From: an archaeon
GTDB taxonomy: Archaea; Nanobdellota; Nanobdellia; Pacearchaeales; GW2011-AR1
Direction of reading: 5' to 3'
Length of the DNA stretch: 64,000 bases
Assembly (NCBI GenBank): GCA_018653485.1
Contig: JABHZE010000001.1
Coordinates: 68,603-132,602 of the forward strand
The notes under the pieces are model-generated. The model did no database searches. It saw only the letters and a program-made list of their open reading frames with translations, and was not told the origin of the DNA. Shown here piece by piece: positions 1-19,358 of the stretch; within the stretch, counting starts at the first letter, position 1; every line of letters begins with the position of its first letter. The position numbers were made by a program, and so were the translations under genes.

Positions 1-18
1 ACCTTTTTTTCTTTTCTT

Positions 19-825
19 TTATCTCTCTTCAAAAATATTATTGTTATCAACAATATTATTATTATTATTATTATGAATATAATCGCTCTCCTTTATATTC
101 TTTTTTCTTCTTGAATATATAAGTTCAACACCAACCATTAGCACAACAGCGACAATGATTATGATTTTATAGTTATTTTTGCCTGCGCCGATTACGGCGC
201 CTGTGATAGAGAATTTGTTTGTAGTTTCTTCGTTAGTAATGGGTTCTATAATGTTAGTATTCTCTTCAACATCTGGTTCAACAACTTCCAGAGTAACATC
301 TACATCATTTGAAATAGTATTATTTGCAGGTGGTAAGGCAGTTCCGCCAGAGCTTGAGCCCGATGAGGATTGGGGTGGTGCAGAGGGGGTGCCTGGTTCT
401 TCGATTGGAGTTTCAGCAATAGTTAATTTAACCCAAACTCCCATTTGAACAATTGAATTTCCTTGTTGTTCTTGACTAAGTAAAATAATCCCATGATATT
501 CTCCAATCACAGAACCACTCATACAAACTTCAACTTCTCTCTCATCAACATCCAACTCATTATCATAATTAATATTTATTCCATGATCAACAGCTGAACT
601 TTCAAAAAGTCCAGACTTCCATTCAACATCAACACTCTCCGCCCATTTATCAGTTATAGATATAGATGAGTCAGAATTAACATTTATTATTTGACAAATT
701 TCTTCTCCAACATTAATTTCTTCAACAATTTCAGATGGAGAAAAACCAGTAGCTAATACAAATCCAGTATTAACTAATATTATTAAAAAAAATACAAAAA
801 TAAAAAAAATAAAATTTTGTTTCAT
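19..825 (-). CDS. Secreted, C-terminally membrane-anchored surface protein, function unknown
   Basis: 268-aa ORF. Hydrophobic N-terminal signal-like segment (FIFFIFVFFLIILVNTGFVLA), Pro/Ser/Gly linker, C-terminal TM helix (IIIIVAVVLMVGVELI) then RRKK and an Asn-rich tail. A 3-nt gap to the upstream ORF 829-1305 suggests co-transcription. Confidence 0.55.
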   Translation of the reverse strand: MKQNFIFFIFVFFLIILVNTGFVLATGFSPSEIVEEINVGEEICQIINVNSDSSISITDKWAESVDVEWKSGLFESSAVDHGININYDNELDVDEREVEVCMSGSVIGEYHGIILLSQEQQGNSIVQMGVWVKLTIAETPIEEPGTPSAPPQSSSGSSSGGTALPPANNTISNDVDVTLEVVEPDVEENTNIIEPITNEETTNKFSITGAVIGAGKNNYKIIIIVAVVLMVGVELIYSRRKKNIKESDYIHNNNNNNIVDNNNIFEER

Positions 826-828
826 GTT

Positions 829-1305
829 TTAACCAGTTACAGGAGGATTTGCAGTAGCAATAAAAGTTATTGTTCCAGTAGTATCTAAAGGAGCAGTTCC
901 AGCAGGAACTCTCAATACTGATTGCAAAGTGTCTGTTCTAGTTTCATCAGCAGGAGCATCAGCTAAGAGTATAGTTTGAGCAACATTTAATTGACTTTCA
1001 TAATCTGGATCTGTGTCTAAATTATAATAAATATTTTCAAAAATATTATCCACACTAGGTTCAGTTAATGTAATCGTTAAAAGTAACTCTACATTATTAT
1101 TTGTACCGATTGTCACCAAAGTGTCTTTAGGGACAGATTCAGCTCCAGAAGATATTTGTCCATAATCTAATGTAACAGTATCTAATGTAAAATCTACAGT
1201 ACCCAAAACTTCTACTTCAGGAGTTTGTTCAGCCATTACCATAGTAACACCAAACAAAATACCAAACACCATTAAAAAACTAAGTAGTTTTTTCATTTTT
1301 ATCAA
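829..1305 (-). CDS. Secreted beta-rich protein, function unknown
   Basis: 158-aa ORF with signal peptide (KKLLSFLMVFGILFGVTMVMAEQ). A GGAGG Shine-Dalgarno-like motif lies about 8 nt upstream of the ATG on the minus strand (plus-strand cctcc at 1317-1321). Confidence 0.55.
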   Translation of the reverse strand: MIKMKKLLSFLMVFGILFGVTMVMAEQTPEVEVLGTVDFTLDTVTLDYGQISSGAESVPKDTLVTIGTNNNVELLLTITLTEPSVDNIFENIYYNLDTDPDYESQLNVAQTILLADAPADETRTDTLQSVLRVPAGTAPLDTTGTITFIATANPPVTG

Positions 1306-1407
1306 CCTCCTTTCATCATTCTCTTTTTTATTGTTAATTAAAAGAGGTTTTGTTATATAAATATTGTCGTCGGTTTGTTGTTACTTTGGATGAATAAAAA
1401 ACCATAT

Positions 1408-1415
1408 TTTAAATA
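1408..1415 (+). promoter_or_regulatory. TATA box (TTTAAATA) for the RadC-like ORF
   Basis: TTTAAATA is centred about 26 nt upstream of the ATG at 1437. The same spacing recurs across the window. Confidence 0.45.
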
Positions 1416-1436
1416 ATTTCAAACCCCATTATCTTC

Positions 1437-1739
1437 ATGAAAATCCACGACCTCCCTAAACAAAACCGCCCCAGAGAACGATTCCTAAAACAAGGCCCCG
1501 AAGCACTAAGTGATGCAGAACTCTTCGCCATCTTCCTCAGAACAGGAACAATAGGGGAAAATGTCATAGATATGTCAAACAGACTTTTAGCAGAATACAC
1601 ATTAGAAAAACTATTTGAATGCAGTCTAAAAGAATTGCAAGCAATCAAAGGAATTGGCCCGAGTAAGGCTATGCAAATTCTCACCATTTCCGAATTAAGT
1701 AAAAGGAGAGAATTAGTTAGCAGATATTCTTTTGAGTGA
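1437..1739 (+). CDS. RadC-like N-terminal helix-hairpin-helix domain only; JAB/MPN domain absent
   Basis: 100-aa ORF. DLPKQNRPRERFLKQGPEALSDAELFAIFLRTGTIGENVIDMSNRLL...LKELQAIKGIGPSKAMQIL matches the conserved RadC/UPF0758 N-terminus. The ORF stops where the JAB domain should begin, and I see no remnant downstream. Confidence 0.55.
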   Translation: MKIHDLPKQNRPRERFLKQGPEALSDAELFAIFLRTGTIGENVIDMSNRLLAEYTLEKLFECSLKELQAIKGIGPSKAMQILTISELSKRRELVSRYSFE

Positions 1740-1776
1740 GAATTAGTAGTAAGGGATATGATAAGTTATAGAAATA

Positions 1777-1784
1777 TTTAAATA
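1777..1784 (+). promoter_or_regulatory. TATA box (TTTAAATA) for the PLD nuclease gene
   Basis: Centred about 27 nt upstream of the ATG at 1807. This argues against the TTG start at 1786 in the ORF track. Confidence 0.45.
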
Positions 1785-1806
1785 ATTGAAACTTGCCTTA
1801 TTTCAT

Positions 1807-2511
1807 ATGGCAAAGTTTTTAGATACATTAGGAATTTCTAATGAGTTAGGTCAGATAATTAAAAATGCTAAAGAGAAATTAGTAATTATAAGCCCCTATC
1901 TCCAAATAAGCGATAGATTTAAAGAAATGCTTGAAGATCAAGACAGAATGAGAATTTATATTGATTTAATTTATCGTAAAAGCAATCTTCAACCTCAAGA
2001 AAGCAATTGGTTAAAGGGTTTGACCTCAGTTAGAACACGTATTTGTAAAACATTGCATGCAAAATGTTATTTGAATGAGAATAAGGCCTTGATCACTTCA
2101 ATGAATTTTTATGAATTTTCTCAGGTTAATAATGAAGAAATGGGAATTGTTGTAAATAAAGATGAAGATCCAGAATTATATGAGGACATTAGTAATGAGG
2201 TTCAAAGATTAATCAGAAATAATGATGAAATAAAAGTGTCTGTAGAAAAAGTTCTTCCAAGAAAAAATAATATTCAAGTTGAAAAAGTAGAAAATGTCAA
2301 AAGAATTACTAATTTTGAGGGTCATTGTATTCGGTGCGATGATAAGATTAAGGTAAACGTTAAAAGCCCATTATGTCCAAAATGTTATAAAAGTTGGAGT
2401 AAATATAATGATAAAGATTATGAAGAAAAATTTTGTCATATGTGCGGTCAAGAAAATAAATCTTCTTTAAATAAGCCAATTTGTTATAGTTGTTATAAGA
2501 AAAATAAATAA
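1807..2511 (+). CDS. Single-HKD phospholipase D-family (Nuc-like) nuclease with two C-terminal CxxC...CxxC zinc ribbons
   Basis: HKD motif LHAKCYLNENKALITSMNF. C-terminus HCIRCDD...CPKCYKSW...FCHMCGQ...ICYSCYKK. Start moved to the ATG at 1807 on TATA spacing; the maximal ORF starts at 1786. Confidence 0.8.
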   Translation: MAKFLDTLGISNELGQIIKNAKEKLVIISPYLQISDRFKEMLEDQDRMRIYIDLIYRKSNLQPQESNWLKGLTSVRTRICKTLHAKCYLNENKALITSMNFYEFSQVNNEEMGIVVNKDEDPELYEDISNEVQRLIRNNDEIKVSVEKVLPRKNNIQVEKVENVKRITNFEGHCIRCDDKIKVNVKSPLCPKCYKSWSKYNDKDYEEKFCHMCGQENKSSLNKPICYSCYKKNK

Positions 2512-2540
2512 TTAGATCATTTTTTATAGTTTTAAGAATA

Positions 2541-4115
2541 ATGAGGTTGAATAGAAAAATGGAAAATAAAGGCCTCTCTAAAACTGTAGGAGAAACTTAT
2601 AGATTGTACACAGAAGGATTTTCAATTCCAGAAATTGCAAATCAAAGAGGTTTTGTGGAATCGACAATATATTCTCATTTTGCAGATTTAATATTAAACA
2701 AATTAATTGAATTAGATAAGATTGTTGAAAAAGAGAAAAAAGAGGAGATATTAGAAATATTAAAAGAAAATGATGTTGAAGGTATAAAAGAAATAAAAGA
2801 GTTGGTTAATGAGTCTATAACTTATGGGGAGATAGTTTGTGTGTTGGCATTTGTAAAATTACAGGGAAATAATATATTAGCTAACATAGTGGCTCCAGAT
2901 ATGAACAAATCTCAAAAGTCTGAGATATTCACTGTGGGAGAACTTACTAAATATATAAAAAATCTATTAGAATCTGATAAAAGATTATCTAATCTATTTG
3001 TTAAAGGAGAAATATCAAATCTAACTTTCCATAACTCTGGTCACACCTATTTTAGTCTAAAAGATAAAGAAAGTCAAATTAGGTGTGTTTTATTTAGACG
3101 GGTTGGAGAAGATCTTAAATTTAATCTTAAACATGGGATGAAAATTATTGTAAGAGGAGATATTGAAATTTATAAGCCACGCGGAGAATATAGTATAATT
3201 GTTGAAGAAATTCAACCAGATGGACTAGGCTCCTTAAATCTAGCATTTATTCAGCTTAAAGAGAAATTAGAAAAAGAAGGGTTATTTCGAAATGAATACA
3301 AAAAAGTATTTCCTAAGTTTCCTAAAACAATTGGAATCATTACATCGCCTACTGGGGCAGCAGTCCAGGATATGTTAAATGTTATAAAAAGACGTTACCC
3401 AGTAGTTAAAGTGTTAATAGCTCCAACACTTGTACAAGGAGAAGGGGCAACTAATTCAATTATTCAATCAATTAAACTAATGAATGAAGCCTCAGACGTT
3501 GATTCAATCATCTTAGGAAGAGGCGGAGGATCACTTGAAGATTTATGGTGTTTTAATGAAGAATCAGTTGCAAGAGCCATATTTGAATCAAAAATTCCCA
3601 TAATTTCTGCAGTAGGACATGAAACAGATTTTACAATTGCTGACTTTGTTGCAGATTATAGGGCTCCAACACCTTCGGCTGCTGCTGAAAAAATTGTTCC
3701 AGATATTAAAGAAATACAAGAACATATCAATCACTTAGAAATAAGATGTGCCAAGTCCCTTTATCATAAATTAAGACTTTGTAGATCTAATTTAAATCAA
3801 ATCATGAATAAATATGTTTTCAAAAAACCTACTGAATTTATACACTCAAACTATAGAGAATTAGACCAAATTGCATATCAATTACAAAATAATATTAAAA
3901 GAATGATTGAAACGAAAAGAAAAGATTTAGAAATTAATGAATCAAAAATTATCGCATTAAATCCTCAAGCAATCTTAGAAAGAGGTTATAGTATTGTAAT
4001 GAATAAAGATAAAATATTAATAAACTCATCAGATGTAGAAAAAGGAGAAGATATAAATATAATATTGCATGGAGGTAAAATAGATGCCAAAGTTAAAAAA
4101 ACCTGGAAAAACTAA
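2541..4115 (+). CDS. xseA: Exodeoxyribonuclease VII large subunit with an extra ~125-aa N-terminal HTH domain
   Basis: OB-fold start FTVGELTKYIKNLLE...LFVKGEISN. Core motifs IGIITSPTGAAVQD, GRGGGSLEDLWCFN, ISAVGHETDFTIADFVADYRAPTPSAAAE. The N-terminal extension contains FSIPEIANQRGFVESTIYSHFADLI (HTH_40-like). An alternative ATG lies at 2559. Confidence 0.85.
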   Translation: MRLNRKMENKGLSKTVGETYRLYTEGFSIPEIANQRGFVESTIYSHFADLILNKLIELDKIVEKEKKEEILEILKENDVEGIKEIKELVNESITYGEIVCVLAFVKLQGNNILANIVAPDMNKSQKSEIFTVGELTKYIKNLLESDKRLSNLFVKGEISNLTFHNSGHTYFSLKDKESQIRCVLFRRVGEDLKFNLKHGMKIIVRGDIEIYKPRGEYSIIVEEIQPDGLGSLNLAFIQLKEKLEKEGLFRNEYKKVFPKFPKTIGIITSPTGAAVQDMLNVIKRRYPVVKVLIAPTLVQGEGATNSIIQSIKLMNEASDVDSIILGRGGGSLEDLWCFNEESVARAIFESKIPIISAVGHETDFTIADFVADYRAPTPSAAAEKIVPDIKEIQEHINHLEIRCAKSLYHKLRLCRSNLNQIMNKYVFKKPTEFIHSNYRELDQIAYQLQNNIKRMIETKRKDLEINESKIIALNPQAILERGYSIVMNKDKILINSSDVEKGEDINIILHGGKIDAKVKKTWKN

Positions 4116-4116
4116 A

Positions 4117-4338
4117 ATGAAAGAAACAATATCTTTTGAAGAGAAATTAAAGCAACTTAAAATGATTGTTGAAGATCTAGAAAATGGAGAGATTCCATTA
4201 AAAGAGTCTATGGGCAAGTATCAGGAAGGCTTAGACTTCATAAAACAATGTCATGAAGAGTTAGAAAATGCTGAATTGAAAATTGAAAAGATCATGAAGA
4301 AAGAAGGGAAGATAACTACAGAGTCTATGAATGATTAG
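4117..4338 (+). CDS. xseB: Exodeoxyribonuclease VII small subunit
   Basis: MKETISFEEKLKQLKMIVEDLENGEIPLKESMGKYQEGLDFIKQCHEELENAELKI is a typical XseB helical hairpin. The ATG is 1 nt after the xseA stop; the maximal ORF starts at 4084 inside xseA. Confidence 0.8.
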   Translation: MKETISFEEKLKQLKMIVEDLENGEIPLKESMGKYQEGLDFIKQCHEELENAELKIEKIMKKEGKITTESMND

Positions 4339-4389
4339 TAAGATTGGATGGAAGAAATAGTTTAAGTAGCTTGTTCAAATTAACTAATG

Positions 4390-4956
4390 TTATCTAAATA
4401 AACCTTTATTTAACTTCTTTTTTATTGTTTCAGTATTTAATTCTATTTTTTCACTATGCGATTCTATAGCTTTTTCCAAGAATCTTATTCTATTTGATAA
4501 GGTGGATTCTGACCTTTCAACCCTCTCAACAGTTTTATTAACTAAACTTTCAAGAATAGTTATTTGACCCTTAATTTCATCTACTTTTTTATCCATCTTA
4601 GATAAATTCAATTTAGAGGTTTTATTGATAGTTTCAATAGATTCATTTAGACTCTTTTTTATAATTTTATCAAAAGTATCTACTTTTTTATTTATTTTTT
4701 GAACTCCTTCATCAATCTTTGAAGGAGATAATTTTGAAGTGTTTTCTATTGTTTTAGAAGATTGTTCTATTAATTTTTTAGTTTCGTTAACAAACCCAGA
4801 TAATGTTTTAGTAAGATTTGACAATTGTTCTTTTGAATCCTCATGAGTCTTTATTACGTCATTTAATTTCTTTAAACTTAACACTAATTCTTTTGCTTCT
4901 TTATTCATACCTAAAAATTCATTTTCCATTTTGTTCCCTAATGTATATTTTATCAT
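4390..4956 (-). CDS. Coiled-coil protein with internal repeats, co-transcribed downstream of the RecQ-like fusion
   Basis: 188-aa K/E/S-rich ORF with repeated TSKL-x-SK-(I/M)D...V(D/Q)(E/K)I segments. It overlaps the end of ORF 4919-8383. The start is uncertain; alternative ATGs lie at 4929 and 4908. Confidence 0.5.
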   Translation of the reverse strand: MIKYTLGNKMENEFLGMNKEAKELVLSLKKLNDVIKTHEDSKEQLSNLTKTLSGFVNETKKLIEQSSKTIENTSKLSPSKIDEGVQKINKKVDTFDKIIKKSLNESIETINKTSKLNLSKMDKKVDEIKGQITILESLVNKTVERVERSESTLSNRIRFLEKAIESHSEKIELNTETIKKKLNKGLFR

Positions 4957-7900
4957 TAATCTCTTTATAAATCTTTTTTATTAAAGTTAATTTGCCATAT
5001 TCTAGAGATACCTGCCTATTATCGAAATACTCAATAAGTTCTTCAGTTAATTCGGGATCATCAATTTTATCTATTAATAATTTACATAACTCTAAACCTC
5101 TTTTTTCATTTATTTTAATAAATTGATACATTAACCAACTTAATATGGGATAAACTTCCCCCTTAGATAGATTGTAATTATTAAATGAAAGTACCATAAA
5201 CTGTTTAATATCTCCAAATATCTTGTTAATATCCCTTTCATTAATTTTTACGCCAGTATATGCTCTTAATATGAATAATCCCATACTCTCTGGAAAATCT
5301 TCTAATGTCCTAGAAATTTGCCCAAATAATGATTTGAAATCAGAAATTGGCTTAATTGAAAAATCATTTAGATCACTTGAACCTTCAATAATCTCTCTAA
5401 TTTGACCCATCATTTTAATAGTATTTTTTGCATTTGCGATACTAACTAGCTGTTTAGAATAAGTCCTCTTTAGAAAATTAGAAATATCTTCCCTAAATAC
5501 CTTATCAGGATCATCAGATTTGCTCGCTTTTTCTATACTATTAAATATAGTTGCTAATGCCTGTCTTCTTCCTTTTTCATGATAATCATATACATAATCT
5601 AAAAACAAATTACAACAAAATAATATAAAATCCTTATTATTTAAATTAATATTACTCATTAATAATTCCTTCTCTTTTTTAGCTCTTAATTTATTATATT
5701 TTTTCACATAATTATAATAGTGGGTAATAATGTTCATTTTAGAAATCTCATTAATTTTTAAGCTAAATTCCTTTGATGCGTAATCTATACCATAATTAGT
5801 TATAGCACCTATTGCAGTTAATCTAAATATTGCTTTTTGTTTAGCTTTAAAAAGATCCTCTCCACTTAACCCTTCATTAATCTCCTCAAATTTAGATTTA
5901 TGGGGTTGATACTCTTTTTCTAAATCTCCAATATCCTCAAGGATACCTTTGATTATGGATAATTCCTCTTTCTTTCCCTTAAAAGTACCATTATGAAAAT
6001 TAAATAAACAACTAAAATCATCCCACTTCTGGTTCTGTTTACATAATTTACGAACTTCATCTAAGGATGTATTTGTATCCATTAGTTTTTTATTTCTTTC
6101 TTCATATTCTGATGAATAAATAATATAACATTCAGATTTTTCTCCATCCCTTCCTGCTCTCCCAGCTTCTTGATAAAATGCTTCTATTGAGGGAGGAAGA
6201 TTAACATGGATAATATACCTAACATTGGGTTTATCAATTCCCATCCCATATCCCTTAGTAGCAATTAAAAGGGGAAATTTATTTTTTTGGAAATTACTTG
6301 CATTAATAATTCTATCATCTTCTTGAGAATGATAAGGTCTAGATATTTTTCCAAAATCTTCATTCATCTTTTCAACAAAAAAATCTACTCCTCGCGGATT
6401 TCTTTCATTATTAGATCTAACCGGACAAAAAATTATTCCACTTTTAGTTTGATTTCCATCAGTATCTAAGAGGGAATCAGTTTTTAACTTAATGGGCAAA
6501 TCTTTTTTAATAAGTCCTTTTACTTTCAAATATTTTTCATTAGAATTACATTCGATTAGGTTAAAATGTAACTCTTTTCTATCAAAAGTTTCAGGACTAA
6601 TTATGGCACCTTCTTCATAGACTTCCAAATCTTCCTTAATATCTATTAAAACATTTTCTGAAGCAGTTCCAGTTAATGCAATTAAAGGAGGAATAAATCC
6701 ATCCTTATTTTCACAATATTTTCTACTATCTTTTCCAACACTAAGATAAGCAGGCCTAAAATCATGCCCCCATTCTGAAACACAATGCGCTTCATCTAAA
6801 ACGATAAGTGAAATTAAATATTTTTGTGTGAATTTTCTTAGAGAATTCCTAAATTCTTGAATAAGGAATCTTTCAGGTGCCACATAAACTAATAAATATT
6901 GCCCATTATAGAATAATTTTTGTATTTTTTCTTTCTCTTGCCTGTTTTCTATATCGCCTGATACTGCAATAGCCCTACTAATTCCCTTCTTTTCCAAGTT
7001 CTCTACTTGATCCTGCATAAGTGATTTTATTGGAACAATTGTAACTGTAATTCCAGGTAATAAAAGTGTTGCTAATTGAAATATTAATGATTTGCCAGCT
7101 CCAGTAGGTAAAAGTGTTATTGTGTCTTTATTCATTAAAACTCTTTTTAATGAATCTATTTGTCCTTCTCGAAAAGATTCATAACCAAAAATATAATTTA
7201 GGAAATATTTCAGAGTTTCAGAGTTAATTTCAGAATTAATTTTAATATTTTCAATTTCTTTAAGTTCTTTAGAAATAATTCTCGGAAAAGAGATATCTTG
7301 TATAATGCATAGAGGTCTATTTGATTTCAGATTTTCATCATAGGTTATTGCAATATCCATATCTTCTATAGATACTAGCTTAATTTTTTCAACTTCTAAT
7401 TTAATATTATATAATTCACATAATTTACAAATCAAATTTTTTAAATCAGTCAAAGCATCATTAATAATAAAATTAATCTCGGATTCAGTAAATTCACTAA
7501 ATGATTTGGTATCAAAATAAAATTTTGTTCTATCTGAAAAATTAATATTTCCCTCAAATAATAACTCTAATAAAGTTACTTGAAACTGATGGGCAATTTT
7601 GAATGAATTGAGAAATTTATCATTTTCAGATTTTGTTTGAATATCTCTAGAAAGATTACTAAGTTCCAGTTCTAATTCCTGAAGGCCATTACAATTAAAG
7701 TTTTCAATATCTGGATTTCTGATTCTTATCTCCTTATAACCCCCTTCAGTTAATCTTTTTGTTCTTGAATCATCTTTTGATTTTTGTTTTTCGTGTTCTC
7801 CCCCATCTAATTCAACAACTATTTTTGATTTATTGGTTGTTATCAAAAAATCTACTCTTTCTTGTGAATCTTTCGATTCTGAAGTAATATCATAATTATA

Positions 7901-8383
7901 AACTAAACTATGAAAACTAACTTGTGGAACTACAAATCTCTTAAATGATTTCCCGAGTAATTTTGACAAAACCGATTCATAGAATTTCTTTTCATATCCT
8001 ACCCCATCAAATTTAAAAGTTGATTCTTTAGATTCATTAACAAAATCGTATGCATACGGATTAAACATCCCATTACCCTTAAACTTTGATTTTAATCTGT
8101 TTTCTAATAAGGGAGATAATAATGTATATTCTCCCCTAGTTAATATTTTATGAGCAATTGATAAAATTGTTTTTTGTTCTGAAGAAACATCCTTCTTATA
8201 ACATTTTGGGAAATCTAGTCTCCATTGGTTAATAAACCTATAATTACCAAAATCCAACTGGTTTTTTGAATCCAACATATTTATAGAATCAAGAATTTCT
8301 TTTGGAAGCGCTATTGATTGATGAAATATTGAAGTGTATCCCTCATTTCGCTCCCTTGCTTTTAAATCTATTATCTCGGCCAT
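4919..8383 (-). CDS. DUF559/Vsr-like restriction-endonuclease-fold domain fused to a RecQ-family SF2 helicase, plus a ~400-aa unknown C-terminal region
   Basis: 1154 aa. N-terminal RVDFLITTNKSKIVVELDGGEHEKQKSKDDSRTKRLTEGGYKEIRIRNPDI is DUF559-like. RecQ motifs: FREGQ, LLPTGAGKSLIFQL, LDEAHCVSEWGHDFRPAY, LTGTA, YHS, GMGIDKPNVRYIIHVNLPPSIEAFYQEAGRAGRDG. Confidence 0.8.
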   Translation of the reverse strand: MAEIIDLKARERNEGYTSIFHQSIALPKEILDSINMLDSKNQLDFGNYRFINQWRLDFPKCYKKDVSSEQKTILSIAHKILTRGEYTLLSPLLENRLKSKFKGNGMFNPYAYDFVNESKESTFKFDGVGYEKKFYESVLSKLLGKSFKRFVVPQVSFHSLVYNYDITSESKDSQERVDFLITTNKSKIVVELDGGEHEKQKSKDDSRTKRLTEGGYKEIRIRNPDIENFNCNGLQELELELSNLSRDIQTKSENDKFLNSFKIAHQFQVTLLELLFEGNINFSDRTKFYFDTKSFSEFTESEINFIINDALTDLKNLICKLCELYNIKLEVEKIKLVSIEDMDIAITYDENLKSNRPLCIIQDISFPRIISKELKEIENIKINSEINSETLKYFLNYIFGYESFREGQIDSLKRVLMNKDTITLLPTGAGKSLIFQLATLLLPGITVTIVPIKSLMQDQVENLEKKGISRAIAVSGDIENRQEKEKIQKLFYNGQYLLVYVAPERFLIQEFRNSLRKFTQKYLISLIVLDEAHCVSEWGHDFRPAYLSVGKDSRKYCENKDGFIPPLIALTGTASENVLIDIKEDLEVYEEGAIISPETFDRKELHFNLIECNSNEKYLKVKGLIKKDLPIKLKTDSLLDTDGNQTKSGIIFCPVRSNNERNPRGVDFFVEKMNEDFGKISRPYHSQEDDRIINASNFQKNKFPLLIATKGYGMGIDKPNVRYIIHVNLPPSIEAFYQEAGRAGRDGEKSECYIIYSSEYEERNKKLMDTNTSLDEVRKLCKQNQKWDDFSCLFNFHNGTFKGKKEELSIIKGILEDIGDLEKEYQPHKSKFEEINEGLSGEDLFKAKQKAIFRLTAIGAITNYGIDYASKEFSLKINEISKMNIITHYYNYVKKYNKLRAKKEKELLMSNINLNNKDFILFCCNLFLDYVYDYHEKGRRQALATIFNSIEKASKSDDPDKVFREDISNFLKRTYSKQLVSIANAKNTIKMMGQIREIIEGSSDLNDFSIKPISDFKSLFGQISRTLEDFPESMGLFILRAYTGVKINERDINKIFGDIKQFMVLSFNNYNLSKGEVYPILSWLMYQFIKINEKRGLELCKLLIDKIDDPELTEELIEYFDNRQVSLEYGKLTLIKKIYKEINDKIYIREQNGK

Positions 8384-8405
8384 AGTAAAACAGGATAAAT
8401 AGTCA

Positions 8406-8413
8406 TTTATAAA
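8406..8413 (-). promoter_or_regulatory. Palindromic TATA box TTTATAAA for the RecQ-like fusion gene
   Basis: Centred about 26 nt upstream of the minus-strand ATG at 8383. Confidence 0.45.
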
Positions 8414-8522
8414 TATTGGCTACTAAGAAAATACTTATCAAAATCCCTAAATACTGCCTTTTTCTTCTAATCCTCCCACTCTCTCCACCCTCCAAAATTA
8501 TTCCCTTTAAAACCTATAAAAA

Positions 8523-8530
8523 TTTATAAA
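8523..8530 (+). promoter_or_regulatory. Palindromic TATA box TTTATAAA for the methyltransferase gene
   Basis: Centred about 26 nt upstream of the ATG at 8552. The octamer is identical to the one used by the divergent gene. Confidence 0.45.
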
Positions 8531-8551
8531 CCTCTTATAACTATCATCTCC

Positions 8552-11500
8552 ATGATAAAAAAAGAGATTAATGATTTGATTACTCAGAGTTTTGATAAAA
8601 CTAATTATAAAAGATTACTTAAAGAAATTTTTAATTTTGAAATTAATAAAGAAGAACTAGTAATACCTGAAACATATAAAAGTAATATCAATGGGGCTGA
8701 AAAACTAGGAGAGTACTCCAAGAATCGAGAAAATATTCAATTTTTTATTGTTCACTCAAATAGAAATATTGAAAAAGCAAAAGTTTTTCACAGAGATTTT
8801 ATTGCTAAAGAATTAATTCAGGATCATAAAGAAAATGCATTGGTTGTTTTTTATAATAAAGAAAAATGGAGATTTTCATTAATTACAATTAATTATGGTG
8901 AAAAAGATGGCAAATTTACTAAGGAAAAAGGAACCGCTCAAAGGGCCTCATTTTTAGTGGGGGAAAACGAAATTAATAATACTTGTAGCCAAAAAATTGC
9001 AGATTTAAAAGAAAATCCTTCTATTGAAGAGGTTAAAGAAGCATTTAATGTAGAAAAAGTAACTAAGGAATTTTTTAAAGAATATAGGAAGTTATTCAAA
9101 GAATTAGGAGAAAAAATGGAATCTCTTTATAAAACTGATAAAAAAATTAAATTAGAATTTGATGAAAAAGATGTAGATTATGTAGAATTTGCAAAGAAAA
9201 CTCTGGGTCAGATAGTTTTTTTATATTTTTTACAAAAAAAAGAATGGTTAGGGGTAAATAAAAATGAAAAATATGGGTCTGGACAAAAAGATTTTTTAAC
9301 AAAACTTTTTCATAATCAAGAGTGTAGTGATTTTTTTAATGATGTGTTGGAACCCTTATTTTATAATGGATTCAATAAAGACAGAACCAATAAAAAAGAT
9401 TATTACTCTGCATTAGATCTTCGTATCCCTTTTTTAAATGGGGGTTTATTTGAACCCTTAGGTAATTATAATTGGGAAAAAACAGATATCCTTCTTGGGA
9501 AAAACATATTCAAAAACATATTCAAAACATTTAATGAATTTAATTTTACCATTTCAGAACATGAACCTTCTGAAAGAGAGGTTGCCGTTGATCCTGAAAT
9601 GCTTGGAAAAATATTTGAACAATTAGGTGCAATAAATAAGGAAAATTTCACAGAATGGAAAAATGCAATCAATTCTGGAAAAAAATCTGAAGAAATGAAG
9701 TTCAATAAATCAAATGGAGTTTATTATACTCCTAGGGAAATTGTAAATTATATGTGTCAACAAAGTTTAATTAATTATATAGATACAAATACTGAAGAAA
9801 AGATTACCAAGAAAGATATAGAAAAATTTGTTTTATTAGGTGATGAGGCACAGAAAATAATTGAAGAAGAAGAAAGACATATAGAGGAGAGAGGGAGATT
9901 TAAAACTATAAATCAAGAAAATTCAATCCCCACCTCAATCAAAAAGAATTACACTCTAATAGATGATTTATTATGGAACGTAAAAATTTGCGATCCAGCA
10001 GTAGGTTCGGGGGCATTTCCAATGGGAATACTGCAAGAAATAGTAAGATTAAGAAGAATTCTTTCAGTTTTTTATACCTCTTCTGAAAAAGAAAAAAGAA
10101 CCCCTTATGAATTAAAAAAAGAGACTATTGAAAATTGCATTTATGGGGTAGATATTGACCCCTCTGCAATAGAAATAGCAAAATTAAGATTTTGGTTATC
10201 TTTAGTTGTTGATGAAAAATTTGAAGAAGATAAAATTAGGCCCTTGCCCAATTTAGATTTTAAGTTAATGCAAGGAAATAGTTTGCTGGAAGAATTTGAG
10301 GGAATTAAACTTTTTGATAAAATCCTTTTAGAACATAGGGAAAAAGGGATTTCTGGAATAGAAAAGATTGAAAATAAAATAAAAGAAGTTAAAAACCAAA
10401 TAATAGAAGCCAGTAAAAACAACATAGAAAAAGATAAACAAATAAAAGAATTAAGAAAATTAGAACGAAAAAAGCAAACCTTATCTAAAAAAGGAGGAGG
10501 TTCAAACCTTACATTATTTATGAAAAATTCTGAAATCAAGAAAACTATTTTAAAATCACTTCAAAAAAGATTATTTGACGAAAATGATGCTTCTGAAAAA
10601 GATAAAATAAAACACAGAATTGATAAAGCGATTTGGGAATTTATAGAAACAACATTAAAAGAAGAAAACAGACAAGAAGATTTAGAAAAAATTAAAAAAG
10701 AATGGGCTAAAAGAAAAAGAAATTTTTTCTTATGGGAATTAAACTTTATGGATGTTTTTGATAGAAAAAACCCTGGTTTTGATATTGTTATAGCTAATCC
10801 GCCTTACATACAACTACAAAAAAATGAGGGAGAACACACTAAATTATATAAAAATAATAATTTTGATTCTTTTGATAAAACAGGAGATATATATTGCCTT
10901 TTTTATGAATTTGGAGTAAATCTTTTAAGAATTAATGGTGTTTTATCTTTTATCACCTCTAACAAATGGATGAGATTAAATTATGGCAATAAGTTAAGAA
11001 ATTTTTTCATAACTAAAACTAACCCCATTTTACTTATGGATTTAGGGTCAGGAATTTTTGATACTGCAATTGTTGATACAAATATTTTATTTTTAGAAAA
11101 AAATGATAATAAGAATCATATCTTCGGTTGTTCTTTAGCTAACCATTCTTTAGCTAACAATTCCATCCCAGATTACATTGAAAATAATAAAGTAAAACTA
11201 GAAACTCCATTAAACACTTCCTGGAAAATACTCCCTAAGAGAGATCAAATGTTAATTTTAAAAATAAGGCATAACAAGATCCAATTATCTGAGAGAGATA
11301 TAAAAATGCATAGGGGAATTTTAACAGGTTATAATGATGCCTTTGTGATAAATCATGATATCAAAAAGAGTTTAATAAAAAAAGATCCAAAAAGTAGAGA
11401 AATTATTGTGCCTCTCTTAAGGGGTCGTGATGTTTCAAAATATTTAAGGGGCATATTTAATTCATATTTAATTAATACTCATAATGGTGTTAGGAGAGGT

Positions 11501-12079
11501 TCTGCTAGAATAAATATTGAAAAATATCCTGCAATAAAAAAGCATTTAGACAAATTTTATGATAAATTAAAAAAACGCCAAGATAAAGGCGATACACCTT
11601 ATAATCTCAGATCCTGTGCATATCTTTCTGAATTTGAAAAGTTTAAAATTGCCTTCCCTGTAATAAATAGAAAATGGAAATTTGTAATAGTTGATAAAGA
11701 TGTTCAGATATTGGCTCCGATGCGTTTCATAACCACTTCAAATTTGAACGAATTAAAATTTATACAAACAATTTTAAAAAGTAATGTTATAAAATATTAT
11801 CATAAGATTAATGGTCCCATGCAGGATGAAACTGGCTATCAAATGGATAATTGGTTTGTTGAATCCTATCCTTTTCCAAACATTAATTCAGTTTTACCAA
11901 AACATTTTATAGAAAAGGTTGATAAAATCCTAAACCTAACAAATGACAAAAAATATTTTGAAGACCAAGAAAAACAAAAAAAAGTTAAAGAAATAGAAAA
12001 AGAGATTAACCAAATGGTTTACAAATTATATGGATTAACTCCTGAAGAAATTAAAATTGTAGAAGAGTTTGAAAAATGA
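8552..12079 (+). CDS. Large Eco57I/type IIG-like N6-adenine DNA methyltransferase with a C-terminal specificity region; N-terminal nuclease not evident
   Basis: 1175 aa. SAM motif I KICDPAVGSGAFPMG. Catalytic motif IV DIVIANPPYIQLQ. Downstream FITSNKWMRLNYGNKLRNFF and GILTGYNDAFVI are typical of type IIG/PglX-like TRD regions. A charged coiled insertion lies between motifs I and IV. Confidence 0.8.
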   Translation: MIKKEINDLITQSFDKTNYKRLLKEIFNFEINKEELVIPETYKSNINGAEKLGEYSKNRENIQFFIVHSNRNIEKAKVFHRDFIAKELIQDHKENALVVFYNKEKWRFSLITINYGEKDGKFTKEKGTAQRASFLVGENEINNTCSQKIADLKENPSIEEVKEAFNVEKVTKEFFKEYRKLFKELGEKMESLYKTDKKIKLEFDEKDVDYVEFAKKTLGQIVFLYFLQKKEWLGVNKNEKYGSGQKDFLTKLFHNQECSDFFNDVLEPLFYNGFNKDRTNKKDYYSALDLRIPFLNGGLFEPLGNYNWEKTDILLGKNIFKNIFKTFNEFNFTISEHEPSEREVAVDPEMLGKIFEQLGAINKENFTEWKNAINSGKKSEEMKFNKSNGVYYTPREIVNYMCQQSLINYIDTNTEEKITKKDIEKFVLLGDEAQKIIEEEERHIEERGRFKTINQENSIPTSIKKNYTLIDDLLWNVKICDPAVGSGAFPMGILQEIVRLRRILSVFYTSSEKEKRTPYELKKETIENCIYGVDIDPSAIEIAKLRFWLSLVVDEKFEEDKIRPLPNLDFKLMQGNSLLEEFEGIKLFDKILLEHREKGISGIEKIENKIKEVKNQIIEASKNNIEKDKQIKELRKLERKKQTLSKKGGGSNLTLFMKNSEIKKTILKSLQKRLFDENDASEKDKIKHRIDKAIWEFIETTLKEENRQEDLEKIKKEWAKRKRNFFLWELNFMDVFDRKNPGFDIVIANPPYIQLQKNEGEHTKLYKNNNFDSFDKTGDIYCLFYEFGVNLLRINGVLSFITSNKWMRLNYGNKLRNFFITKTNPILLMDLGSGIFDTAIVDTNILFLEKNDNKNHIFGCSLANHSLANNSIPDYIENNKVKLETPLNTSWKILPKRDQMLILKIRHNKIQLSERDIKMHRGILTGYNDAFVINHDIKKSLIKKDPKSREIIVPLLRGRDVSKYLRGIFNSYLINTHNGVRRGSARINIEKYPAIKKHLDKFYDKLKKRQDKGDTPYNLRSCAYLSEFEKFKIAFPVINRKWKFVIVDKDVQILAPMRFITTSNLNELKFIQTILKSNVIKYYHKINGPMQDETGYQMDNWFVESYPFPNINSVLPKHFIEKVDKILNLTNDKKYFEDQEKQKKVKEIEKEINQMVYKLYGLTPEEIKIVEEFEK

Positions 12080-12276
12080 ATCTTAAAGAAATTATATTTA
12101 CTATTCTTATGTTTTTTATTGGATATGTTCTAAAATCCGCATTTAAAGAATCACTTTGTTCAATTAATTCATTAGGATGTTTTGTAGGATTTGTTGCGTA
12201 TACCTTGCCAGTAATTATTATTGGAGTTTATTGGTTAAATAAAATATATCCCTCTTTAGAAAAATTGTTGAAATAA
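12076..12276 (+). CDS. Small two-TM membrane peptide translationally coupled to the methyltransferase
   Basis: 66-aa ORF. Its ATG overlaps the methyltransferase stop (ATGA at 12076-12079). Two hydrophobic helices: IIFTILMFFIGYVL and FVGFVAYTLPVIIIGVYWL. Confidence 0.5.
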   Translation: MNLKEIIFTILMFFIGYVLKSAFKESLCSINSLGCFVGFVAYTLPVIIIGVYWLNKIYPSLEKLLK

Positions 12277-12292
12277 AGAGAATTAAACCAAA

Positions 12293-15200
12293 TTAAACAA
12301 ACCACTCACTCAAAATTATTTCTTCGGGCTTATCCTTATTATCCTCTTCATTTTCCTCTATCCTATATTTCTTAAAAAACTCTTTTGGAATATTCCCCAT
12401 TAAGAATGTATACGCTTCAACATTATCTAATTTAACGACTTTCTTCAAAGATTTTGAGTCAGGAATCTTTTTTTCTTTTAACAAATCTTCAATTTTTTCC
12501 AACATATCTAATTCTTTTTCATACAATCTTTTATCTTTTTTCATTAATACTATTTTATTCATAATTATCTTTGCATTCCCTGTTAATCCCGCACCCATTT
12601 TCTTTTTTGGTTTACAATCTTCCAAAAATTTCTCCCTTAACTTAGCAAACTTTTTATAAAAATCTTTTTTATCTAAATTAATTGATTTTTCATTTTTTTC
12701 TGCTTTAATAATTTCGATTATTTTCTCAAAATCTATCACTTCTCCAACCTCATTTTTATCATAGGAATATGCGAATTTAAAATTCCCTTTCTTAAAAAAA
12801 CTAAAAAGCTCTGAATTTTTCTTTTTTCTTCCAAGTTTTATTTTCCCAGGCAAACTTTCAATTTTCTTAAATAATTCTCGATTATTTTCCCTTATATTTC
12901 TAATAAACATTCTTTCAGTATCTTCCATTGTTGTTAAAGAATCTTCTTGTTGAACAGAAGACTGAAGACGTTGAAAAAATTCTTTATGACTAAGAATTTC
13001 CTCATCTTCAAAAAGAAGTTTAGAATCATTCCCTAGAAGCCTAATAAATGCCTTTATTTTTTCTTCTGCATTTTCTTGCAATTTTATTTTATCATTAATT
13101 TTTTTTGCAGGAAAGAAATTATAGGTATTAATTTCATTAAAAGGTAAATCTTTTGCAACCCTATCAATTCTTCCAACTCTTTGAATGACTCTAACGGGAT
13201 TCCAAGGAATATCATAATTTAAAACTTTATTTGCACGATTTAAATTAACTCCTTCAGATAAAGTATCTGTTGAAATTAAAACATTATAATCGTTTTTTTG
13301 ATTCTTTGAAAAATGATCAAAATTTTCAATAACTTCTTCCTTTAATTTTTCTCCAGAAGAACCTGAAAAAGTTATAACATCCTTTCTATTGAGTTCTTTT
13401 TTTAGATAATCAATAGTATCTTTTGATTCACTAAAAACAATTATTTTCTTTTCATTTTCTGGAAGTTTGTTCAAAAAATCCCTAAAAGAATTTAATTTTG
13501 GGTCAATTTTAACTTTTTCCCATATTTCTTGAATCTTTTTTAAATTATTCAAATCAGATTCTAATAATTTCCTAAAACTTGGTTTAAATTCTTTTTTGAG
13601 ATATTTTTTACCTTTTTCATTTTGAACTAATTTTTCTATCTCCTCCCACCTTTCACCTTCAATAAAATCAAACACCTTTGCATAATAATCCTCACTTACA
13701 ACAATAAATCCTTTTTCATCATAAGATTTTATTGAGGCTTCATAATGCCTTATAAATCTCTTAACAGATTCTCTAAATGCATGAAAACTGCTTTCTAGTC
13801 TCTTTGCTACAAGAATTTTCATAAAATGTTTAATATTCTTCTGAGGAGTTTTCTTGTTTTCATCTATATCTTTTTTTAAGTAAAGTATTGGAGCATACCT
13901 ACAATACTTCATATTCTTTTCATCTAAAAGTAATTCCAAGGTTTCTTCAAAAATTCCATCTAATTTTTCATCAAATTCATAATATAATGTCTTAGGAGTA
14001 TTAACTTTTGGAAATCTAAGGCCTTGTTTATCCATATCTTGAGAAAATAATTTTTTAATATCCGACCTAGTCCTTCTTATCATGACCTTTCTTAAGATCC
14101 TATTTCTTATATCATCAGAAATTTTTTTAAGTTCATCCAAATATTCTTTTCGAGATATTTTTTCTTCGTTTAATTCTTTTTTTAGTTTTACCCTTTTAGA
14201 TCTAATCTCTGTAAAATATCTATCTAAATCTTTAATGCTTGGATGAAATTTAGCATTCTTCATCGGCGTAAATAATGCAATTTGATTTTTTAAATCATCT
14301 GGGCGATTATTTAGAGGGGTAGCAGTAACTAAAATAACATTTTTCCCTCTACAAATAGCAGAAAGTTGAGAATACATTTTAGTATTTTCATTTCTAAATC
14401 TATGGGCTTCATCAATTACAATATTATCATAATCATCTACACCCTTTCTTAGAATTTTATCTAATTTACCAATAGATTCAAATTCTCCTTTATTTCTAAG
14501 AATTTCAAAACTATCAAAGACATTTTGCCAAGATCCGGGATTTTCTTTATTTACTAACATTGGAGGTGCAATTACAAGAGTTTTTCCAGGGAGCTCTTTC
14601 ATTAACATTGTAGTTATAAATGTTTTACCCAAACCAACTACATCTGAAATAAAAACACCACCATATTTATTTAATATTTTTCTTGCCCTTCCCACTGCAT
14701 CTTTTTGATAATCTAAATCCATTAAATGAGTTGGGGCAGAAATCTTTCTTTCTTCAAAATCCAATTCATCTTTAAAATACTCTTGAAGGAATTTTAAATA
14801 AAATTCATAAGGAGTTATATCTTCTCTAAATTGACTATTTTTTTCTATAGTTTGAACATGTAATTCAGATACATCTACAGAGTGGTTTTCCCATAAATCA
14901 TCAAAGATTTTTTTAATTTCTATGTAATCTTCCTTATCTTGTAAAAAAACATTAAATTCAATATTATCTTCCAACCCCGCTTTAGTCAAATTACTTGAAC
15001 CCGTTATAACTGTCCCTGGTTGTAATTGCCGAGAATTATTTTTATCATAAGTCATAATGTAAACCTTCGCATGAGTCCTATTCTTACAAGCTCTAATTTT
15101 TAATTTTCTACTTTTTATCCAATTCTTTAATTTATTTACTCCCTCTTCAACATCTAACTTAAACTCTGCAGAATCAATATCTTTCAATGTTTGTTTTTTA

Positions 15201-15448
15201 TGCTCTTTTTTTATTTCTTTTTCTGTAAGTTCATTAATGGATTTTATTTCATCATAGAATTTATCATCCATAGCGATTCCAGTAAGAATCTTAATCTCTT
15301 CTACATTTTCTAGATAATCATGTATTTTGTAAAAACCGCTTTTGTAAAGATATGCTACAAGACAATCAAATTCCTTACTGGAAGATAATTGTTCAGTCAA
15401 TATTGGAGAAAGTTTATTTTCTTCCTGGTTAGTTATAAATGATCCCAT
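12293..15448 (-). CDS. PLD (HKD) nuclease domain fused to an SNF2-family helicase/translocase
   Basis: 1051 aa. N-terminal HKD motif THAKVYIM...GSSNLTKAGL. SNF2 motifs DVVGLGKTF, IDEAHRFRN, LVTATPLNN, STDTLSEGVNL, NYDIPWNPVRVIQRVGRIDR. About 300 aa of unknown C-terminal tail. Confidence 0.85.
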   Translation of the reverse strand: MGSFITNQEENKLSPILTEQLSSSKEFDCLVAYLYKSGFYKIHDYLENVEEIKILTGIAMDDKFYDEIKSINELTEKEIKKEHKKQTLKDIDSAEFKLDVEEGVNKLKNWIKSRKLKIRACKNRTHAKVYIMTYDKNNSRQLQPGTVITGSSNLTKAGLEDNIEFNVFLQDKEDYIEIKKIFDDLWENHSVDVSELHVQTIEKNSQFREDITPYEFYLKFLQEYFKDELDFEERKISAPTHLMDLDYQKDAVGRARKILNKYGGVFISDVVGLGKTFITTMLMKELPGKTLVIAPPMLVNKENPGSWQNVFDSFEILRNKGEFESIGKLDKILRKGVDDYDNIVIDEAHRFRNENTKMYSQLSAICRGKNVILVTATPLNNRPDDLKNQIALFTPMKNAKFHPSIKDLDRYFTEIRSKRVKLKKELNEEKISRKEYLDELKKISDDIRNRILRKVMIRRTRSDIKKLFSQDMDKQGLRFPKVNTPKTLYYEFDEKLDGIFEETLELLLDEKNMKYCRYAPILYLKKDIDENKKTPQKNIKHFMKILVAKRLESSFHAFRESVKRFIRHYEASIKSYDEKGFIVVSEDYYAKVFDFIEGERWEEIEKLVQNEKGKKYLKKEFKPSFRKLLESDLNNLKKIQEIWEKVKIDPKLNSFRDFLNKLPENEKKIIVFSESKDTIDYLKKELNRKDVITFSGSSGEKLKEEVIENFDHFSKNQKNDYNVLISTDTLSEGVNLNRANKVLNYDIPWNPVRVIQRVGRIDRVAKDLPFNEINTYNFFPAKKINDKIKLQENAEEKIKAFIRLLGNDSKLLFEDEEILSHKEFFQRLQSSVQQEDSLTTMEDTERMFIRNIRENNRELFKKIESLPGKIKLGRKKKNSELFSFFKKGNFKFAYSYDKNEVGEVIDFEKIIEIIKAEKNEKSINLDKKDFYKKFAKLREKFLEDCKPKKKMGAGLTGNAKIIMNKIVLMKKDKRLYEKELDMLEKIEDLLKEKKIPDSKSLKKVVKLDNVEAYTFLMGNIPKEFFKKYRIEENEEDNKDKPEEIILSEWFV

Positions 15449-15455
15449 GTTCTTA

Positions 15456-17373: not shown

Positions 17374-17397
17374 CTTACTAACAAATACCAACCCAAC

Positions 17398-17405
17398 TAT
17401 ATAAA
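17398..17405 (-). promoter_or_regulatory. TATA box (minus-strand TTTATATA) for the Cas4-like nuclease operon
   Basis: Plus-strand TATATAAA at 17398-17405, centred about 28 nt upstream of the ATG at 17373. Confidence 0.45.
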
Positions 17406-17477
17406 TCTTTCTAATTGTAACCCCTTTATAGTTACAGCAGAGTATAAGAACTTCTACCAAATCACTTCAAGAACCCC

Positions 17478-19343: not shown

Positions 19344-19358
19344 AAACAAATTAATAAA

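Follow-up and report, generated by a model that had tools for sequence, protein, structure and literature searches.

What is a RecQ-type helicase with an endonuclease-like domain at its N-terminus doing in the genome of a DPANN-type archaeon? The question is raised by a locus on contig JABHZE010000001.1 (assembly GCA_018653485.1; Nanobdellota, Pacearchaeales), of which we analysed a stretch of 64,000 nucleotides, positions 68,603 to 132,602, referred to here as the window. On its minus strand this stretch encodes a nuclease-RecQ-like helicase of 1154 aa (4919..8383, stop codon TGA at 4919-4921), recognised from its open reading frame (ORF) and from Pfam, NCBIfam and PADLOC matches, and directly after it a small coiled-coil protein; scans with these three collections covered the ORFs of the window from 1 to 23.5 kb. 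The original prediction, made from the letters alone, held that a nuclease-RecQ fusion standing head-to-head with a methyltransferase gene looked more like a restriction or defence effector than a housekeeping RecQ. On the evidence presented below we lean, by a narrow preference, towards the view that the helicase gene and its small neighbour form a self-contained two-gene helicase-nuclease module of the defence or genetic-conflict type, located in a defence island of this archaeon.

The nuclease part of the protein is the most distinctive. Two alignments were used to examine it, one of 40 full-length homologues (23-76% identity), in all of which the nuclease domain is kept, and one of 21 sequences that represents the N-terminal region. 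A DUF559 pattern had been noticed at residues ~175-230, and the peptide in question, RVDFLITTNKSKIVVELDGGEHEKQKSKDDSRTKRLTEGGYKEIRIRNPDI, occupies residues 176-226 of the 1154-aa protein; Pfam places DUF559 (PF04480) on residues 177-229 with an E-value of 7.9e-12 (45.5 bits against a cut-off of 20.6), overlapped by weaker matches to DUF2726 and REase_MTES_1575. When the N-terminal sequence profile was compared with the PDB, it recovered the DUF559 protein 3hrl (E 6.4e-9) and I-Bth0305I, a Vsr-like homing endonuclease (E 0.02). Residues 1-392 were modelled with AlphaFold from the 21-sequence alignment; the model had a pLDDT of 86.9 and a pTM of 0.90, and its middle part resembles 3hrl locally (Foldseek probability 0.97, TM 0.71), with further local matches of the nuclease domain to I-Bth0305I (3r3p) and to Vsr itself (1vsr). 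Together with the invariant columns of the alignments, these matches delimit a DUF559/Vsr-type endonuclease domain of the PD-(D/E)xK superfamily at residues ~130-245 (7649..7996, minus strand).

Within this domain neither alignment shows any variation at D178 or E191, while R176 and H197 are unchanged throughout the 21-sequence alignment and nearly so in the larger one, and D193 is nearly invariant among homologues down to 23% identity; R207 and R220 are also invariant, and D204 nearly so, in the 40-sequence alignment. The D...E-x-D...H pattern of DUF559/Vsr-type enzymes is kept, and the conservation of these residues indicates that the putative active site is under selection. The motif residues are consistent with an active site, although catalysis itself remains putative. 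Two further alpha/beta subdomains, defined by the model and by conservation, flank the nuclease. The first (residues 1-125; 8009..8383, minus strand) is specific to the nuclease-RecQ family and bears the conserved motifs QWR.D and KILTRG; in other lineages it is preceded by zinc ribbons of the Top1 or GRF type, or by a HAD domain and a ShosT-like domain. The other (residues ~250-392; 7208..7636, minus strand) joins the nuclease to the motor and carries a conserved IIQDISFP motif; it too is family-specific, and no known relative of it was found. A Foldseek search of the PDB returned no global match for the N-terminal 392 residues, nor for the C-terminal 393.

The motor that follows is a complete RecQ-family superfamily 2 (SF2) helicase, as had been claimed. 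It spans residues ~395-760 (6104..7201, minus strand), with the Pfam DEAD domain (PF00270) on residues 406-577 and Helicase_C (PF00271) on residues 642-747, and it displays motif 0 (FREGQ), Walker A (PTGAGKS), DEAH, the aromatic-rich loop (SEWGHDFRP) and motif VI (QEAGRAGRDG), RecQ motifs that are invariant across the 40 homologues. Membership of the RecQ family is indicated by the NCBIfam model recQ_fam (TIGR00614; 269.1 bits against a cut-off of 219.8) and by RecQ structures: E. coli RecQ (1oyw) matches residues 391-757 at E 1.4e-55, and the RecQ, RECQ5 and BLM structures as a group match at E 1e-55 to 1e-48 over residues ~390-765 only. The nuclease and motor matches thus recorded exceed by far what chance would give. 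Beyond this point the likeness ends. The C-terminal region (residues 762-1154; 4922..6100, minus strand) is modelled as a helical bundle, a winged-helix-like unit and a TPR-like all-helical repeat (pLDDT 85.4, pTM 0.53), for which fold matches were weak and of the TPR/IFIT type only, and its profile gave no sequence match in the PDB. In agreement with the absence of recognisable RQC or HRDC features that had been remarked on for the last ~400 aa, no RecQ_Zn_bind (PF16124), RQC (PF09382) or HRDC (PF00570) match was obtained in Pfam at E<=0.01, and the alignment of the region contains no invariant cysteine. Its conserved residues include E936, R939 and R940. It stands in for the Zn-binding, RQC and HRDC domains, and we regard it as a candidate sensor or partner-binding domain.

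That this protein is not a housekeeping RecQ is well supported. It shares with canonical RecQ a complete motor with the aromatic-rich loop, but it lacks the Zn-binding, RQC and HRDC domains, its gene is accessory and moves horizontally, and it falls far short of the canonical RecQ equivalogs TIGR01389 (304.9 against 640.2 bits) and PRK11057 (238.3 against 1015 bits). In one close archaeal lineage (L093-95) a canonical recQ stands beside the module; in the first of these loci a 605-aa RecQ with Zn_bind, RQC and HRDC domains is encoded directly downstream (4284-6101). This coexistence with a canonical RecQ shows that the nuclease-RecQ fusion does not itself fill the housekeeping role. Members of the family carry the public annotation "RecQ family ATP-dependent DNA helicase". 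An architectural parallel among RecQ-type proteins is eukaryotic WRN, which also has a nuclease N-terminal to its motor; the WRN nuclease is a DnaQ-type exonuclease, however, whereas that of the window protein is a Vsr/PD-(D/E)xK-type endonuclease.

The distribution points in the same direction, being rare, patchy, accessory and horizontally spread. Among 1.84 billion 50%-identity representatives, searches with the N-terminal module recovered 194 clusters at a threshold of E<=1e-30 and 772 when this was relaxed to E<=1e-10, the full-length matches being almost all 1100-1650 aa long, and most 90%-identity clusters hold 1-5 members, with a few of up to 44. Of 5426 complete E. coli genomes, 7 carry the enterobacterial version, on plasmids in four and on the chromosome in three. 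Members were found in Dehalococcoidia, Acidobacteria, Proteobacteria, Flavobacterium, Balneolaceae, Paludibacteraceae and DPANN archaea, as well as on IncF plasmids of Klebsiella, Raoultella and E. coli; the helicase clusters closest to the window protein include one from a Nanobdellota metagenome-assembled genome. A scan of genome contigs with RecQ motif patterns returned mostly ordinary RecQ genes and is unusable for prevalence; the family members among the matches listed are six (L001-L005 and L007). A metagenome scan with a 9-sequence alignment gave 11 loci. No family member was detected in a scan of viral contigs or by tblastn of the N-terminal region against phage records, an absence that neither helps nor hurts a reading in terms of defence.

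What travels with the helicase gene is not a methyltransferase but the small gene that overlaps its 3' end. In the window the longest ORF (4390..4956, minus strand) would encode 188 aa from an ATG at 4956 and overlap the helicase gene by 38 nt. The true start is likely to be the ATG at 4929, which yields a 179-aa protein (4390..4929, minus strand) beginning MENEF, as in homologues; the start of the partner gene then lies within the end of the helicase gene, and the two genes share 11 nt (4919..4929, minus strand; ATGGAAAATGA). This overlap suggests that the partner is co-transcribed and translationally coupled with the helicase gene. Partner orthologues that are 45-52% identical lie directly after the helicase gene in close relatives, and a small gene (114-226 aa) follows it in every more distant locus. 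A partner is thus present in every locus with a complete 3' flank, about 25 in all, in which helicase identity to the window protein ranges from 76% down to about 24% and which belong to archaea, Dehalococcoidia, Acidobacteria, Bacteroidota, Proteobacteria and plasmids of Enterobacteriaceae. Usually the two genes overlap (by 4-26 nt in L001-L007), while four loci (L081, L085, L086, L088) have short gaps of about 1-16 nt. Comparison across these loci shows the small ORF to be a real, conserved gene.

The repeat-containing coiled coil that had been described for this ORF was also recovered. The window partner contains a diverged internal duplication of 33 aa (36% identity, E 5e-6; the corresponding DNA repeats lie 99 nt apart), and Pfam and PADLOC returned weak coiled-coil-type matches only. 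In the partner of one related locus (L085, 11698-12141) an 18-aa unit, IGSGKIFERLENIEKINQ, occurs three times in tandem without any change; this, together with the window duplication, suggests that expansion of repeats underlies differences in coiled-coil length. Outside the archaeal clade of the window, the partners of all 12 loci terminate with a hydrophobic helix (Kyte-Doolittle 19-residue maxima of 2.3-3.3), from which we take them to be tail-anchored membrane coiled coils. In hydropathy profiles this terminal helix is missing from all partners of the archaeal clade to which the window belongs, and as only 51 nt separate the partner gene from the adjacent xseB, there is no room for a transmembrane helix in the window copy.

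An enterobacterial sub-family shows how the module can be elaborated. On a Klebsiella IncFII plasmid (L107, 6872-12959) and in two further loci (L108; L109 from E. coli) it forms a three-gene operon in which a ShosA/PsyrA-like gene of the DprA family precedes and overlaps the helicase gene, and a gene for a 162-aa tail-anchored coiled-coil protein follows it. In E. coli the three genes are carried, for example, by plasmid pLAO18 (NZ_OP242248) and by strain ET846. The helicase is here a 1558-aa protein that contains, in order, a HAD domain, a ShosT-like segment, DUF559, the RecQ motor and a C-terminus as in the window protein. In PADLOC the DprA-like product matches ShosA at E 2e-65 and PsyrA at E 3e-28. 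Such a ShosA/PsyrA-like gene is confined to the enterobacterial sub-family, and neither Pfam nor PADLOC revealed a DprA-like partner (PsyrA/RqlI) in the window. ShosTA is a DNA-damage toxin-antitoxin defence system (PMC11961720, PMC12961424), and RqlH/PsyrT is a 690-aa helicase-phosphoribosyltransferase (PRTase) that is genotoxic unless restrained by the DprA-like RqlI (PMC4670107).

The module shares features with these and other systems but differs from each. The RecQ-like core resembles PsyrT (PADLOC, 3e-64), but in the motor only, residues 389-763 aligning to PsyrT 6-352 of 689; RqlH/PsyrT carries its PRTase at the C-terminus and has no nuclease, whereas the window protein combines a Vsr-type nuclease with a TPR-like C-terminus and is paired with a coiled-coil rather than a DprA-like protein, and the absence of any Pfam PRTase match sets it apart from the PsyrTA/RqlHI architecture. 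What PsyrTA/RqlHI, ShosTA and the nuclease-RecQ family have in common is that all act, or are thought to act, on DNA integrity. Anti-phage SF2 helicases fused to a Vsr-type nuclease are known from ARMADA and Druantia (PMC12458937). ARMADA types I and II and Druantia likewise place an apparently active Vsr-type nuclease on an SF2 helicase, with coiled-coil elements in some; their helicases, however, are of the YprA/DrmA family with DUF1998/MZB zinc modules and a C-terminal nuclease, whereas the window protein is RecQ-family, lacks MZB and has its nuclease at the N-terminus. Searches of the window protein gave no PF09369 match and marginal motor matches only to DrmA and DruE, which places it outside the YprA family that serves DISARM, ARMADA and Druantia. 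Hhe, which Gao et al. are said to have described in 2020 as a single-gene defence protein made of a helicase and a Vsr-like endonuclease, combines a helicase motor with a Vsr/DUF559-superfamily endonuclease in one polypeptide and resides in defence islands, as does the window protein. The Hhe motor is of superfamily 1 (Upf1-like), though, its nuclease is C-terminal, and it has DUF4011, AAA_11/12, MTES_1575 and DUF3320 and no partner gene; the window protein differs in its SF2 RecQ-type motor, N-terminal nuclease, TPR-like C-terminus and additional coiled-coil partner, and no Hhe model appeared among its PADLOC matches at E<=0.01.

The best PADLOC matches of the window protein are in fact to DpdF models. 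One of these, PDLC02868, spans sister members end to end (3e-124 for L004, 2e-112 for the Klebsiella protein), but the window protein aligns to it from the motor onward only (residues 390-1039) and remains far below the NCBIfam DpdF equivalog (173 bits against 550). Islands of the Dpd type, which carry out 7-deazaguanine modification and restriction, also hold SNF2 (DpdE) and PLD (DpdK) proteins, and proteins of both kinds are present in the window too; tgt/dpdA, dpdB and dpdC were not found in its scanned ORFs (1-23.5 kb) or in the gene lists of about 20 related loci. With Zorya and Kiwa, in which a membrane component is paired with a cytoplasmic DNA-targeting effector, the likeness is by analogy only, in that the gene for a membrane-anchored coiled coil accompanies that for a helicase or nuclease effector. 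The partner has weak, compositional matches to ZorA tail models, but there is no MotAB-like channel and no homology to KwaA or KwaB, and the partner is a single-pass tail-anchored protein that in the clade of the window is not anchored at all.

It is the surroundings of the module that argue for defence, and they do so as context. Type I restriction-modification (R-M) systems lie near it in five loci (L081, L098, L100, L107, L109), GmrSD with methylases in one (L082), Fic in two (L083, L090), integrases in six (L002, L086, L089, L090, L091, L100), genes of the conjugative-transposon type in L004 (from Flavobacterium frigidimaris DSM 15937) and a giant YprA-like helicase with DUF1998/MZB in L001. 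The Klebsiella IncFII plasmid (L107), which is conjugative, carries the module together with a Type I R-M system, and on the chromosome of E. coli ET846 (L109) the module sits between a Type I R-M system and a PD-(D/E)xK nuclease, a restriction endonuclease and an MZA system. The proposal of a restriction or defence effector is thus borne out as far as context goes, by R-M, GmrSD, integrase, MZA, IncF and ShosT/ShosA associations, and no further than context. A gene for a GNAT acetyltransferase directly adjoins the module in two loci of Bacteroidota (L004, 8765-9874; L007, 4732-5469), and in L004 it is fused to TPR repeats; this may be a third, lineage-specific component. A 227-aa gene upstream of the helicase gene in L100, considered as a homologue of the PLD gene described below, proved to encode a membrane protein instead.

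The window region is itself a defence island. Divergent from the helicase gene, across an intergenic region of 168 bp in the ORF map (8384..8551) that presumably holds the promoters of both, lies a Type IIG restriction-methylase gene of 1175 aa (8552-12079, plus strand; PADLOC full-length restriction-methylase model, 2e-227), the end of which is overlapped by a 66-aa ORF (12076-12276, plus strand) with no assigned function. Next comes a run of three genes on the minus strand (12293-17460) for a PD-(D/E)xK Cas4-like nuclease of 425 aa, a 244-aa protein without any family match and an HKD(PLD)-SNF2 helicase of 1051 aa (PADLOC "HKD+Snf2", 1e-44; DrmD, 1e-32); there is an 8-nt overlap between the first two genes and a gap of 7 nt before the third, and the run is probably a separate defence system. 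On the other side of the module, a PLD-family (HKD) protein of 241 aa with C-terminal zinc ribbons is encoded at 1786..2511 (plus strand; PF13091). A 231-aa orthologue of this PLD and zinc-ribbon protein is located divergently beside the helicase gene in three loci (L082, L089, L090), the only ones with phmmer matches to it (62% identity between the window and L082 proteins), and may play an accessory part in this close clade of archaea. In the window, xseA and xseB separate it from the module: these genes for a bacterial-type exonuclease VII (2541-4338, plus strand; XseA has 524 aa and an HTH_40 domain at its N-terminus) occupy the space between the PLD and partner genes and are oriented towards the module, and they were either acquired horizontally with the island or supply a single-stranded DNA exonuclease that works with the RecQ-type motor. 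Further out, a 100-aa ORF (1437-1739, plus strand) that contains the N-terminal part of RadC only (UPF0758_N and HhH, E 4e-28) looks like a truncated radC; full radC genes lie near the module in three related loci (L081, L092, L098), which suggests that radC and the module share a hotspot of insertion or a mobile element.

Taken together, these observations would fit the following course of events for a defence or genetic-conflict module, in which we infer nuclease and helicase activity, the role of the partner, the trigger and the defence function. In one polypeptide, a RecQ-type DNA motor of 3'-5' polarity would be joined to an endonuclease of the Vsr/DUF559 type and to a C-terminus with winged-helix and TPR-like units. 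The coiled-coil partner would bind this enzyme, most plausibly through the helical C-terminus, and hold or position it; in bacteria this would take place at the membrane, in the archaeal clade of the window in the cytoplasm. Upon encountering foreign or aberrant DNA, such as single strands, forks or ends, the RecQ motor would load and translocate, and the Vsr-type domain would nick or cut the unwound DNA, so that the invader would be destroyed or, if the enzyme were unrestrained, the host genome damaged. A bolder form of this idea, which we put forward as a tentative possibility, is that the family represents an undescribed and widespread immune system in which the tail-anchored coiled coil stations the RecQ-Vsr enzyme at the membrane and intercepts DNA that enters by phage injection, conjugation or transformation; the DPANN clade would have turned the module soluble, and it may act there with ExoVII, RecJ and the PLD nuclease on unwound foreign DNA.

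Several points weigh against the defence interpretation. The role given to the partner is pure conjecture, and as the archaeal clade has no membrane anchor, a membrane-based mechanism cannot be general. PADLOC v2 has no dedicated model for the nuclease-RecQ module, and our literature searches found no description of the family. Some bacterial loci lie amid housekeeping genes (L088), others among mixed neighbours. In the archaeal clade, several genes around the module are bacterial-type genes of DNA repair: recJ beside it in L092 and L097, recQ in L093, a stand-alone 200-aa gene with RQC and HRDC directly downstream in L091 (10834-11436), and xseAB with the radC fragment in the window, radC lying a few kb off in L081, L092 and L098. 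The canonical recQ leaves room for a role in repair, or else points to a shared hotspot of integration.

Because recJ, recQ, xseAB and radC adjoin the module in this clade, the main rival is an accessory enzyme of DNA repair or recombination, WRN-like in that it would process single-stranded gaps, ends or mismatches together with RecJ, ExoVII, RecQ or DprA while the coiled coil serves as a scaffold. Many members carry topoisomerase- or GRF-type zinc ribbons, which are typical of DNA-repair enzymes, the enterobacterial copies are paired with a DprA-family gene, and Vsr itself is a repair nuclease. We nonetheless consider this explanation unlikely. The extreme patchiness described above, both in E. 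coli genomes and in the sizes of the 90%-identity clusters, and the carriage on conjugative plasmids, beside integrases and between R-M and MZA systems are not what a repair enzyme would lead one to expect; the DprA-like gene scores as an antitoxin of the ShosA/PsyrA type and not as canonical DprA, a membrane-anchored partner is odd for a repair helicase, and genes like radC are themselves often carried by mobile elements. Some of the same features could be accommodated if the module were a toxin-antitoxin or addiction system that stabilises its mobile element, the helicase-nuclease acting as toxin, the partner (with the ShosA-like protein in Enterobacteriaceae) as antidote and phage defence being secondary. 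The proximity of the helicase core to the DpdF and PsyrT models of PADLOC, the genotoxicity of unrestrained RqlH/PsyrT, the tight coupling of the two genes, their occurrence on plasmids and near integrases and the enterobacterial ShosT-like domain and ShosA-like gene would all agree with this. Yet a long coiled coil, often membrane-anchored and encoded downstream, makes an atypical antitoxin, and neither Pfam nor PADLOC detects in the window protein the toxic PRTase domain of RqlH/ShosT, so that we think such a function quite improbable; its boundary with abortive-infection defence is in any case blurred, and it is partly a sub-case of the defence interpretation.

The scenario closest to the original prediction would make the helicase-nuclease the restriction arm of the adjacent Type IIG methyltransferase, cutting DNA that lacks its methylation in the manner of Type I/III or DISARM systems. 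The head-to-head arrangement of the two genes in the window invites this reading, as do the weak DrmC, DrmD, DpdK and DpdE matches of the PLD and HKD-SNF2 genes, and in L090 a co-directional pair of genes, one for a 1144-aa HKD-SNF2 helicase and one for a 1092-aa methylase of the MmeI type, is found 2.5 kb upstream of the module, at 1-5572. Comparative genomics largely refutes it. The adjacency is specific to the window, the neighbour differing in every other locus examined (Type I R-M, GmrSD, Fic, recJ, recQ or housekeeping genes), and it is the small coiled-coil gene that is the conserved partner, so the argument from the methyltransferase falls. A conserved super-system of the DISARM or Dpd kind that would include the module was considered and rejected, as the SNF2 and methylase proteins of L090 share no more than 24-27% identity with their window counterparts (24% for the methylase) and are therefore unrelated instances, the same kinds of system recurring in islands. 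Moreover, no DUF1998 (DrmB) gene and no dpdA, dpdB or dpdC genes are present, and with a full-length restriction-methylase match the Type IIG enzyme probably needs no separate nuclease. We thus regard this scenario as highly improbable.

The remainder of the window offers a few observations on its setting. It encodes a threonyl-tRNA synthetase with an archaea-specific editing domain; no tRNA and no Rfam match was found in it, and a search for direct repeats that might mark the boundaries of the island returned short, chance-like matches only. The G+C content is 25-35% across the window and slightly lower, at 25-28%, in the part with the defence island (4-16 kb). The synthetase, the Nanobdellota cluster among the closest helicases and the G+C content together make a DPANN archaeon the most likely host. 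Over 16000-52000 the GC skew stays strongly negative (-0.3 to -0.6); it is weaker in 4-16 kb. Two adjacent paralogues of 240 and 215 aa at 18621-20006 (plus strand) have no family match, and their DNA is 75-90% identical over repeats D1 and D4 at the gene starts, with a spacing of about 740 nt.

Helicase-nuclease combinations recur in prokaryotic immunity, as in Hhe, ARMADA, Druantia and Hachiman, the last a two-protein nuclease-helicase complex; no earlier description was found of a RecQ-type motor that bears a Vsr-type nuclease at its N-terminus and has an obligatory coiled-coil partner, in most cases anchored in the membrane. If the defence interpretation is correct, it would show how conflict systems recruit RecQ motors and would link parts of ShosTA and PsyrTA to a larger modular family, and as a version of the module exists in E. 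coli, it is directly testable. It would also add a defence system to the DPANN archaea, for which few have been reported (PMC12988326).

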